Positions 1,964 to 3,340 of a stretch of 64,000 nt of DNA are shown piece by piece. The DNA comes from a bacterium. GTDB taxonomy: Bacteria > Patescibacteriota > Minisyncoccia > UBA6257 > 02-FULL-45-10c. Each line of letters begins with the position of its first letter. Within the stretch, counting starts at the first letter, position 1. The stretch lies in NCBI GenBank assembly GCA_030700025.1, contig JAUYKI010000017.1, forward strand, positions 2,748 to 66,747, read 5' to 3'. The notes beneath the pieces are model-generated. The model saw only the letters and a program-made list of their open reading frames with translations. It had not been told where the DNA came from and searched no databases. The translations under genes and the position numbers were made by a program.

Positions 1964-3340
1964 AAGGTGATTAGCTTGTGCAAGCGGCGGGGTTTTATTT
2001 TTCCCGGATCGGAAATTTACGGGGGATTGGCAAATTCCTGGGATTACGGCCCATTAGGGGTGGAATTGAAAAATAATATCAAGCAGGAATGGTGGAGGCG
2101 TTTTGTGCATTCCCGGACGGATGTGGTGGGTTTGGATACGGCTTTAATTATGAACACCAAAGTTTGGGAAGCGAGCGGACATTTGAAGGAATTTTCTGAC
2201 CCGTTGGTGGAGTGCGATGTGTGTAAAAATCGGTGGCGTATTGATGCATTGGATCAAATGAGGGCTCGTAAAGCAGATGGCTCATATAGATGTCCAACAA
2301 TGACGGCCTCTTTTATTAAGGGGGGTGCCGATAGTTATTGCTCGGGCAAATTAAGTGAACCACGCCAGTTTAATTTAATGTTCAAAACTTTTTTAGGCCC
2401 AGTGGAAAGCGAAGACAATACAGTTTATTTCCGTCCGGAAACCGCGCAGGGAATGTTCGTAAATTTTAAAAACGTTTTAGAAACTACCCGCAAGCGTTTG
2501 CCGTTCGGCATTGCCCAGGTCGGCAAAGCATTCCGGAATGAAATTACTCCGGGCAATTTTATTTTCCGCACCCGCGAGTTTGAACAAATGGAAATAGAGT
2601 ATTTTACTCACGAAAAAGATTGGAAAGCTCATTTTGAAATGTGGCTGGAAGAAATGAGAAATTGGCTCCGGCATTTGGGGGTGAAGAAATTCCACGAAAC
2701 GGAAATTCCGGACGGCGAACGCGCCCACTATTCCAAGCGGACCGTGGATATTGAATATGACTTTCCGTTCGGCAAAAAGGAGCTTTATGGCCTGGCCTAT
2801 CGGACAGATTTTGATTTAAAAAAACACATGGATAAAAGCGGGGAGGATTTCCGGTATACCGATCCGGAAACTAATGAGAAGTTTTTACCGCATGTTATTG
2901 AGCCGACTTGGGGCGTTGACCGCTCGGTATTGGTTGCATTGCTGGAGGCTTACCATGAAGAAACGGTTAAAAGTGAAAAGTTAAAAGTGAAAAGTGAGGA
3001 CGATGAAGATACGCGGGTAGTTATGAAATTTCCAAAATGGCTGGCGCCGGTTAAGGTGGCAGTTCTGCCTCTTTCCAAGAAAGAAAATCTTTCCAGCCAA
3101 GCTAAAAAAATTCATGAAGATTTGGCAAAAGATTTTGTCTGTGAATATGACGAAACCCAAAGTATCGGCAAGCGCTATCGCCGGCAGGACGAAATTGGAA
3201 CGCCGTTTTGCGTAACAGTTGATTTTGAATCGCTGGAGGATAAAGCGGTAACGGTGAGAGATCGTGATACAATGAAACAAGAGAGAATTTCTATTTCTGA
3301 ATTAAAGAACTATCTAAATCAGAAATTAAATTCCGAATAA
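1958..3340 (+). CDS. glyQS: Glycyl-tRNA synthetase, dimeric archaeal/eukaryotic-type class II.
   Basis: The N-terminus [34 protein letters not shown] and the class II motifs are seen. The ORF track starts at 1892, but the conserved N-terminus and the recurrent 'ctaacgggATG' start context favour 1958. It carries an in-frame SEKLKVKSE repeat insert. Confidence 0.88.
   Translation: [460 protein letters not shown]

Follow-up and report, generated by a model that had tools for sequence, protein, structure and literature searches.

The genes for glycyl- and leucyl-tRNA synthetase (GlyRS and LeuRS) on a 64,000-nucleotide stretch of a patescibacterial genome (contig JAUYKI010000017.1, positions 2,748 to 66,747, the whole of which is called the window here) each carry a short and almost identical repeat within their reading frames. 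This raises the question of whether a single element has been inserted into two unrelated essential genes, as the original prediction for this DNA proposed, or whether some other process has written the same letters twice. The window was compared with a set of 161 sequences (2.5 Mb) fetched around leuS, to which the L-numbers used below refer. With moderate confidence, we consider that both stretches are members of a class of short heptanucleotide arrays found across the Patescibacteria, or Candidate Phyla Radiation (CPR), that these arrays resemble short tandemly repeated repetitive (STRR) sequences, and that they are copied in a 7-nt register and filtered by selection.

Re-reading of the DNA confirmed that the two stretches are present, in frame and near-identical. 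The GlyRS array, GTTAAAAGTGAAAAGTTAAAAGTGAAAAGTGA, occupies positions 2966-2997 of the open reading frame (ORF) 1892-3340, whose start is probably at 1958, and encodes an 11-residue peptide, while the LeuRS array, AAGTGAAAAGTTAAAAGTTAAAAGTGA, occupies positions 14048-14074 of ORF 12441-14966 and encodes SEKLKVKSD. A search of the window for shared repeat runs found the 26-mer AGTGAAAAGTTAAAAGTKAAAAGTGA, common to GlyRS and LeuRS, at no other site except for a self-shifted match within the GlyRS array, and shuffled sequence yielded no match to it.

The identity of 25 of 26 bases between the two arrays results from a common unit family (GTKAAAA), a common frame and the avoidance of TGA, TAA and TAG. 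Both arrays are read as AGT-KAA-AAG-TKA-AAA-GTK-AAA-AGT-KA. The first K must be G (the alternative is TAA), the second must be T (the alternative is TGA), and the fourth must be G in GlyRS (the alternative is TAG); the third K is unconstrained and is the one position at which GlyRS and LeuRS differ. The near identity is therefore forced convergence and provides no evidence for the movement of one element, and the proposal that a single element was inserted into two synthetases is not supported. A similar array at position 16434 of L144, an unrelated CPR contig, lies in the RsmA gene and encodes the same 11-residue peptide as the GlyRS array.

The further sites that had been named in leuS, glmS and ligA are all real and in frame. 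At every named site, a 7-nt unit is repeated in tandem in 4-5 copies over 25-37 nt (units AAATTCC, GCGAAAA, AAATTAG, CAAAAAT, CTAAAAG, AAGTTNA and GTKAAAA), so that the unit lengths of 9, 8 and 12 nt given earlier were wrong in each case. Across the 64 kb, Tandem Repeats Finder reported some 25 arrays of period 7. In our own period scan (score of at least 10), the window held 16 period-7 runs against 0.1 in Markov shuffles, with 0-1 runs at periods 5, 6 and 9 and two at period 8. Additional arrays, absent from the original prediction, were found at two sites in a tatD-family gene and at a fourth site in leuS, and about a dozen more in intergenic spacers, where a similar repeat style had been correctly recognized. 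That the arrays are products of chance, or of assembly or sequencing errors, is scarcely credible, as shuffles yield just 0-0.1 arrays, the reading frame is preserved across the arrays of essential genes, and dozens of assemblies made independently in different projects contain such arrays.

The in-gene arrays carry a clear mark of selection. A 7-nt unit passes through all three codon phases in every 21 nt, and in the in-gene arrays of the window the deviant unit is the one whose phase would otherwise create a stop codon: TGA is changed to TTA in GlyRS and at LeuRS 14048, TAG to TCG at LigA 58100, TAA to TCA at LigA 59423, and TAA to TTA at TatD 9122 and in GlmS. The unit CAAAAAT at LigA 59220 is stop-free in all frames, and that array is 100% uniform. 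The same count was made over 73 in-gene arrays by reading the consensus unit of each in frame. The consensus was stop-free in 41 of the 73 arrays, 18 of which were perfectly uniform, and would have given a stop in the other 32, none of which was perfect. In these 32 arrays, 37 of 82 variant bases fell at positions where an unvaried repeat would have made a stop, although these account for just 10.4% of positions; this is 4.3-fold above chance. Residual divergence was 4-5% in both groups. In-gene arrays are thus strongly filtered by selection, being kept in frame and free of stops.

The comparison set revealed that the class extends well beyond the window. In the 2.5 Mb, 152 arrays were found at period 7 and 123 at its multiple 14, against 6-39 at the other periods between 4 and 15, and scans at lower thresholds confined the excess of run lengths to period 7. 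Array density was 5.9 per 100 kb in loci labelled as CPR and 0.53 in non-CPR loci, an 11-fold difference, and reached 20 in the window. The set contains 74 distinct canonical units, the most frequent being AAATTAG (equivalent to ATTAGAA) and AAGAATT. Read on the A-rich strand, the arrays take the form (AAWWnnn)x4 + AAWW, with an A-tract at both ends, as would be expected if the A-tract served as microhomology for misalignment. Array lengths center on 29-33 nt in genes and intergenic regions alike, and almost never exceed 38 nt. This peak was considered as proof of a pre-formed cassette, a use that is weakened by the continuum of weaker period-7 runs at lower thresholds and by a count of perfect runs that changes little between 14 and 29 matches and is cut off near 36 nt; because of this continuum, only the upper length limit is robust.

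No conserved sequence information was detected in a set-wide comparison of the array flanks, and therefore neither a target duplication nor a terminal repeat accompanies the arrays. Predicted folding energies were 0 to -2.7 kcal/mol, no better than those of shuffles, with no palindrome or hairpin, and an Rfam scan of the window returned only tRNAs. ORFs contain 57% of the arrays while 90% of the DNA is coding, so that the density is about 7-fold higher in intergenic regions. Within ORFs, the A-rich strand was the sense strand in 70 arrays and the antisense strand in 12, while intergenic arrays had no orientation bias. A replication-strand bias is inseparable from gene orientation in the window and was not seen among intergenic arrays.

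Two further layouts were observed in the set. Arrays can be compound, as in the RsmA/KsgA gene of L144 (16096-16182), where AATTTCC x4, AAAATCC x3 and TATGTGA/TACGTGT x4 stand back to back in an 87-nt, in-frame block. Inverted pairs of arrays bracket 66-370 nt in L114 (4634-4659 and 5026-5052, CAGACTA versus GTAGTCT) and L144 (179-210 and 277-308, TAATTTC versus ATTAGAA), a layout resembling a miniature inverted-repeat transposable element (MITE) or a long stem.

The gene content of the window, with type IV pilus genes, several aminoacyl-tRNA synthetases and large surface proteins, fits a CPR genome. Its closest LeuRS genes, at 62-69% identity, come from metagenome-assembled genomes (MAGs) of uncultured Patescibacteria/CPR, and the next relative of its GlyRS in a search of 5.8 billion proteins is 77% identical. 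Two loci (L027 and L021) from MAGs labelled Bdellovibrionales and Gammaproteobacteria have CPR-type arrays at the CPR LeuRS hot spots, with LeuRS proteins 52-54% identical to that of the window; these two labels are probably wrong.

In LeuRS, GlyRS and TatD, the same permissive alignment columns hold arrays time and again in lineages that are 50-70% identical. LeuRS has five such hot spots. The columns of the 14452 array also hold arrays in L021, L029 and L047, and L118 has an array at the place of the 14608 array. Both TatD sites recur, with an array in L002 at the 8943 position. At the GlyRS site, L161 carries AAAATTM x4.5, and homologous GTNAAAA arrays are present in L118 and L003. The units at a homologous site are uniform within a lineage and every one of them is changed between lineages. 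Upstream of the leuS promoter, the unit is GATTTGA in L138 and GCTTTGC in L131, and at LeuRS 13772 the AAATTCC of the window corresponds to AAATCCG x4.4 in L118. At a first site in the LeuRS editing domain, L101 has AAATTNN, L156 five perfect copies of GAATTCA and L008 AGATTMA, and at a second site the same loci have AAAATCT, five perfect copies of ATCTCAA and AAACCTT, respectively. Flanks at these loci are 75-83% identical, against 95-100% for units within an array, which indicates that arrays are re-copied faster than the genes diverge.

The original prediction anticipated that relatives would lack the GlyRS array, and this was borne out in that most of them read APTAEEG, but not in L118 and L003 with their homologous arrays. 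A homologous array at the same position in these two related lineages goes half of the way towards the outcome named as a refutation, namely ancestral sequence in place of an insertion; L085, the sister of the window in a tree of six syntenic proteins, has no such array. As L085, and likewise L002 and L004, lack the array and keep the consensus sequence, the array was gained at least twice.

Alignments of the host proteins indicated that arrays sometimes add residues and sometimes replace them, so that the view of the arrays as inserts holds for only some of the sites. Residues are added by the arrays of GlyRS (+6 relative to Mycobacterium GlyRS and +5 relative to the CPR consensus APTAEEG), LeuRS 14048 (+5 relative to both Thermus thermophilus LeuRS and five of five syntenic relatives), GlmS (+6 relative to Escherichia coli GlmS and +11 relative to four syntenic relatives) and two of the three LigA arrays (+4 at 58100 and +14 at 59220 relative to E. 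coli LigA). The LeuRS 14608 array adds seven residues (21 nt, three units) relative to L003 and L085, and the GlmS site of L085 has a different array-like insert of seven residues. In contrast, the LigA 59423 array, in the linker that precedes the BRCT domain, brings no net insertion relative to E. coli LigA. The TatD 9122 segment has 13 codons in six of six syntenic genomes, with CTAAACC/CTATACC x4.4 at this place in L085, and the array therefore replaces native sequence. At the two sites of the LeuRS editing domain, arrays of other CPR lineages also replace native residues at unchanged length: these lineages have HPLIKNYELRIKNYGEV in place of the HALISQLDARITNPNAV of the window and keep the conserved R-I-x-N.

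The hosts of the arrays tolerate them in surface or variable segments, and on this point the alignments and a structure model agree with the original view of a DNA-level repeat class accepted within core enzymes. In an AlphaFold2 model of GlyRS (42-sequence alignment, mean predicted local distance difference test (pLDDT) score of 79), the array residues 337-347 form a coil between the strands 332-337 and 351-356, and residues 341-349 have a pLDDT below 50, which places the array in a low-confidence loop, as had been anticipated. The LeuRS 13772 array lies within a 27-residue segment that follows a CxxC motif and is missing from T. thermophilus LeuRS, and the 14452 array lies in a length-variable region of the anticodon-binding part.

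These locations, together with the nature of the encoded peptides, could suggest that selection acts on the protein, with short Lys-rich, heptad-periodic surface peptides aiding nucleic-acid enzymes, for instance by helping them to bind tRNA or DNA. The peptides are indeed rich in Lys, Ser and Glu, and GlyRS, LeuRS, LigA and TatD bind nucleic acids. However, such selection predicts a periodicity of 21 nt, or in amino acids, and not 7-nt identity over all three codon phases. Additionally, the same arrays fill non-coding spacers, GlmS and PorA are hosts too, and the peptides at one site vary freely among lineages, which altogether makes this explanation highly improbable.

Our preferred reading places the copying at the DNA level, in a 7-nt register. 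The likeliest mechanism would be slipped-strand or transient template misalignment between A-tracts that lie 7 nt apart, and the same process would both generate the arrays and keep re-homogenizing them. Short-patch conversion from array to array may additionally spread favored units within a genome. Within genes, selection then filters the products, as the placement of the variant units shows, and the survivors are those that are in frame, stop-free, A-rich on the sense strand (giving peptides rich in Lys, Ser, Glu, Asn and Ile) and located in permissive surface or linker segments.

Several observations weigh against this reading. Simple slippage explains neither the sharp ceiling of about five units, with arrays above 38 nt almost absent, nor the unit size of 7 nt. 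As single-unit slips are frameshifts, length-neutral homogenization in essential genes would require conversion-type events. GTNAAAA arrays were gained at least twice at one GlyRS site, and the relatives that lack the array there have no obvious seed. Genome and metagenome scans with LeuRS and the protein search with GlyRS found no relative above 69-77% protein identity. Pairs of arrays with the same unit within a genome numbered 43 against 6.4 expected, a count that none of 5000 label shuffles reached. A composite made up of T[AG]GACATT(TT) and, after it, (ATTRGAA)x4 has nine copies, spread over both strands, in L144 (metagenome contig Ga0315268_10001095, which has 19 arrays in 19.8 kb, positions 1-19795) and two in the window. 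An identical 32-mer is found at L144 4926 and 6839, and the 31-mer at 3368-3398 of the window equals the reverse strand of L144 179-210, in two genomes whose LeuRS proteins are 52% identical.

A rival reading is that each array is a ready-made cassette of about 32 nt (4.5 heptads), transferred between loci by a trans-acting activity or by ectopic short-patch conversion. Such cassettes would overwrite their targets, coding sequence included, or insert into them, and a single genomic dialect would be the source of the arrays in GlyRS, LeuRS and GlmS. Consistent with this are the narrow size range shared by genic and intergenic arrays, the overwriting of native sequence without change of length, the units common within genomes, the repeated gains of GTNAAAA at the GlyRS site, and the 32-mer and 31-mer identities. 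The composite, headed by GACATTTT, is concentrated in 20 kb of L144, where one of its nine copies lies in frame in the interdomain linker of PorA (peptide FQISNFQFPISNKMSNP), and the L144 units ATTTGGG and AATTTCC recur in different genes. Wholesale replacement would likewise produce lineage differences that appear concerted. On the other hand, the in-gene arrays lack terminal inverted repeats, target duplications, hairpins and conserved flanks, and 74 different units are in use. No match to a transposase, a reverse transcriptase or a family resembling the REP-associated tyrosine transposases (RAYT) was found among the window ORFs scanned (about 50 of 51), and viral contigs matched neither the 31-mer nor the composite. 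When L144 is left out, unit sharing holds for intergenic arrays but is not significant for in-gene arrays (3 pairs against 1.1 expected, reached in 462 of 5000 shuffles), and the identity of the GlyRS and LeuRS arrays is explicable without copying. We therefore consider a dedicated cassette unlikely as the general explanation, while some copying or mobility between loci is possible.

The composite is the exception to the lack of a family consensus among the arrays, as its ATTRGAA units with the GACATTTT head behave like a family. Its sites include L144 4902-4957, 5398-5440 and 6822-6870 and window 3351-3398 and 8531-8577. Several unit families coexist in one genome. Of the 59 intergenic arrays, 24, from 12 genomes, are built of ATTAGAA-like units. 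Three candidate features of these regions were tried and rejected. The string ATTGGACATT, taken at first as a -35-like flank, is really a heptad variant whose recurrence is limited to the ATTRGAA composite; GAAATTTATG, as a start-proximal motif, was not enriched; and by-eye inspection of the composite as a sigma-70 promoter found that the 7-nt lattice gives spacings of 14 or 21 nt in place of the canonical 17.

The intergenic arrays with an ATTAG core could instead be operator, centromere or RNA sites for an oligomerizing protein that would contact one heptad per subunit, with the in-gene arrays as collateral products or additional sites. Such a role would be akin to that of the omega/ParB protein of pSM19035, a ribbon-helix-helix (RHH) protein, or of HutP on (UAG-N4)n in RNA. 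The prevalence of ATTAGAA-like units agrees with this, as does the pattern in which the ATTAG core is constant while the other two positions vary, a core that recurs at a spacing of 8-10 nt upstream of the pilin gene and gatA. Arrays adjoin start or stop codons or lie upstream of a conserved promoter, they are indifferent to orientation, and their 4-5 units match the minimum of four contiguous heptads reported for plasmid pSM19035 (PMC9499535). A regulator has also been proposed by MacGregor for TAACTGA repeats (PMC4679880). Yet one genome carries many unrelated units, so that a single sequence-specific factor cannot read all arrays, and all units of a given array agree in their spacer bases, a sign of copying more than of selection for a core motif. 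No match to an RHH family and no other candidate binder emerged from the scan of window ORFs (about 50 of 51), and in L161, a syntenic relative of the window, none of the three spacers examined contains an array. A binding-site role is, for these reasons, considered quite unlikely.

A combination of the last two ideas may also be entertained, in which CPR bacteria would have a dedicated system for writing and rewriting cassettes of a fixed size (4.5 x 7 nt, or about 32 nt), even over essential coding sequence at permissive sites, and a sequence-specific partner, such as an oligomerizing RHH-like or RNA-binding protein, would read the ATTAG-core version at gene boundaries. If true, the arrays would be a new genome-wide signal or a selfish conversion drive and not the passive debris of slippage, but we give this proposal a small likelihood only.

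Motifs related to the ATTAG core were also seen in two other places. The gatC-gatA spacer (window 60809-60918) contains ATACTAAT x4 followed by its reverse complement ATTAGTAT x3, and three ATTAGTA motifs lie 8-10 nt apart upstream of a pilin gene (window 44880-44918). The sequence GTATCATTAGTA is exact in both regions, and these motifs may be the site of a regulator that shares the ATTAG core of the heptads.

The arrays of the window are listed in Table 1. Intergenic arrays often contact start codons (at 3400 and 37751), stop positions (5745 and 34599) and the flanks of tRNA genes. The array at 5743-5769 runs into a putative terminator, read by eye as a hairpin with a T-run, the array at 34599-34639 lies upstream of the tRNA at 34712, and the last array of the divergent region at 37548-37749 has the unit AAATTGT and ends 1 nt before the ATG of pilM. 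Array density is uneven along the genome: strong arrays are missing from 16000-34000 and 38000-58000, where P-type ATPase, metabolic, pilus and surface-protein genes are found, and are clustered in the blocks with aminoacyl-tRNA synthetases, glmS, tatD and ligA.

Table 1. Heptanucleotide arrays in the window, with positions counted from its first base.
Feature	Position	Strand	Units, peptide and context
glyS array	2966..2997	+	GTTAAAA GTGAAAA GTTAAAA GTGAAAA GTGA; 11-residue peptide
leuS array	13772..13802	+	AAATTCC x4.4; VNSKFQTPNSK
leuS array	14048..14074	+	AAGTGAA AAGTTAA AAGTTAA AAGTGAC; SEKLKVKSD
leuS array	14452..14480	+	GCGAAAA x4.1; GEKRKTKSEK
leuS degenerate array	14608..14640	+	AGTCAAT AGTTAAT AGTCAAT TGTTATT AGTTACT
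glmS array	15584..15617	+	AAGTTAA AAGTTTA AAGTCAA AAGTTCA AAGTT; VKSLKSKVQS
ligA array	58100..58132	+	AAATTAG x4.7; unit 3 is AAATTCG, avoiding TAG
ligA perfect array	59220..59252	+	CAAAAAT x4.7; 10-residue peptide
ligA array	59423..59451	+	CTAAAAG x4.1; unit 3 is CTCAAAG, avoiding TAA
tatD-family gene array	8943..8975	+	GAATCAG GAATGAT GAATTAG GAATTAA GAATAAG
tatD-family gene array	9122..9151	+	AATGACC AATAACC AATTACC AATAACC AAA
Intergenic array, TAGAATC family	1780..1826	+	between the stop of a DUF11 gene and glyS
Intergenic composite	3349..3398	+	head ATTGGAC, then ATTTT and (ATTAGAA)x4; 1 nt before the ATG of an M16 peptidase gene
TAGAATC array	5743..5769	+	start coincides with the stop codon of the AI-2E transporter ORF (ends 5745)
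Intergenic array upstream of tatD	8452..8481		T-rich orientation
Intergenic array upstream of tatD	8529..8577		ATTGGAC head, then ATTAGAA-type units
tRNA-tRNA spacer array	27364..27390		TAACTTA x3.9
Array from last base of IMPDH ORF	34599..34639	-	TAATTTC/TAATTAC x5 on +, which is ATTAGAA on -
Weak intergenic array	35632..35659		AACTAAT x4
Divergent intergenic region, almost all heptad arrays	37548..37749		37548-37584 (ATTAGAA on -), 37593-37623, 37661-37724, 37731-37749

Other features of the window were noted in passing. Many of its genes lack a Shine-Dalgarno sequence and have a TGnTATAAT-like -10 box whose end lies 7-9 nt upstream of the start codon, as in leaderless transcripts (starts at 4717, 12441, 42285, 48077, 57163 and 57614, and the minus-strand genes 22089-24686 and 25342-26547), while others have a clear GGAGG, and the genome appears to use both the leaderless and the GGAGG mode of initiation. 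At 28958-31586, a citrate synthase gene adjoins a gene of the PrpD/MmgE family (2-methylcitrate dehydratase-like), a pair not usually expected in CPR bacteria, given their reduced metabolism. Two large Kelch/LVIVD-repeat proteins are encoded at 50478-55103, and Kelch blades of the second correspond to tandem DNA repeats of 144 nt in its gene (53619-54076; 2.8 copies at 78% identity).

The abundance of the arrays in CPR bacteria, their ceiling of about five units, their frequent in-frame residence in essential genes, and their positional persistence combined with concerted change look new. No paper describing any of these features was found in the literature, and we know of no prior description of heptamer arrays in Patescibacteria/CPR. 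If the observations are general, a large and little-known bacterial radiation continually remodels surface loops of its most conserved enzymes by a DNA process that works in a 7-nt register. Alignments and phylogenies of CPR marker genes would be affected, as segments encoded by arrays are convergent, and so would gene calling, as arrays abut start and stop codons. The arrays also bear on a long-standing question, namely why 7 nt is the one unit size whose repeats proliferate in bacteria. Unlike intergenic arrays, those within genes allow copying to be separated from selection, because only in-frame, stop-free states survive.

Among known systems, the closest are the dispersed heptamer repeats of other bacteria. 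STRR heptamer repeats were reportedly described in cyanobacteria by Mazel in 1990. Dispersed heptamers are also known from Xanthomonas (GGGAATC) and Nostoc (GGGGA(T/C)T) (PMC4692102) and from the Beggiatoaceae (TAACTGA; PMC4679880), and heptanucleotides are the most abundant class of long simple repeats in many bacteria, with polymerase slippage as the proposed origin (Mrazek 2007, as cited in PMC4679880 and PMC4692102). The CPR arrays likewise consist of head-to-tail 7-nt repeats beyond chance, with period 7 over-represented and with genome-preferred units dispersed at many loci as short direct tandem arrays. Enrichment between genes, adjacency to start and stop codons and inverted pairs are also shared with the STRR, TAACTGA and GGGAATC repeats, as is slippage as the proposed origin. 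The observations that plain slippage does not account for, such as the sharing of units within a genome, are typical of these repeats as well. The CPR arrays differ in that their units are A/T-rich and many per genome, the number of units has a ceiling of about five, more than half of the arrays lie in ORFs, including those of essential housekeeping genes, and deeply separated lineages carry them at matching protein positions, where they evolve in concert.

Phase-variable contingency loci also consist of short tandem repeats in or next to genes, with units that are not a multiple of three. Such loci switch surface or restriction genes by frameshift, whereas the hosts of the CPR arrays are essential enzymes (GlyRS, LeuRS, GlmS, LigA, TatD) for which a frameshift would be intolerable, all of these arrays are in frame and stop-free, and copy number is held at in-frame values.

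The palindromic elements of Rickettsia, to which the repeats were originally likened, are said to be palindromes of 100-150 bp with a family consensus that lie in frame at surface-exposed places of conserved genes (Ogata, in 2000). The two have in common that DNA-level repeats reside in frame at surface-exposed places of conserved genes. The analogy goes no further, as the CPR arrays are about 30 nt long, direct and unable to fold, with no palindrome or hairpin, no conserved flanks, no target duplication, and 74 units in place of a family consensus.

The omega/ParB system of pSM19035 requires at least four contiguous 7-bp heptads in any orientation (PMC9499535), and the intergenic ATTAG-core arrays resemble its sites in unit size, in having 4-5 units, in occurring in both orientations and in lying near promoters. 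The plasmid heptads follow one consensus, while ATTAG-core arrays coexist with other units, the CPR arrays comprise many units and occupy genes as well, and no partner was found among the window ORFs scanned. Lastly, the tandem repeats of Borgs (PMC9879509) share with the CPR arrays an A-rich coding strand, independent origins, fast evolution and the creation of new disordered protein segments. Borg units within ORFs are multiples of 3 nt, and the repeats are longer and perfect, whereas the 7-nt unit of the CPR arrays runs through all codon phases.

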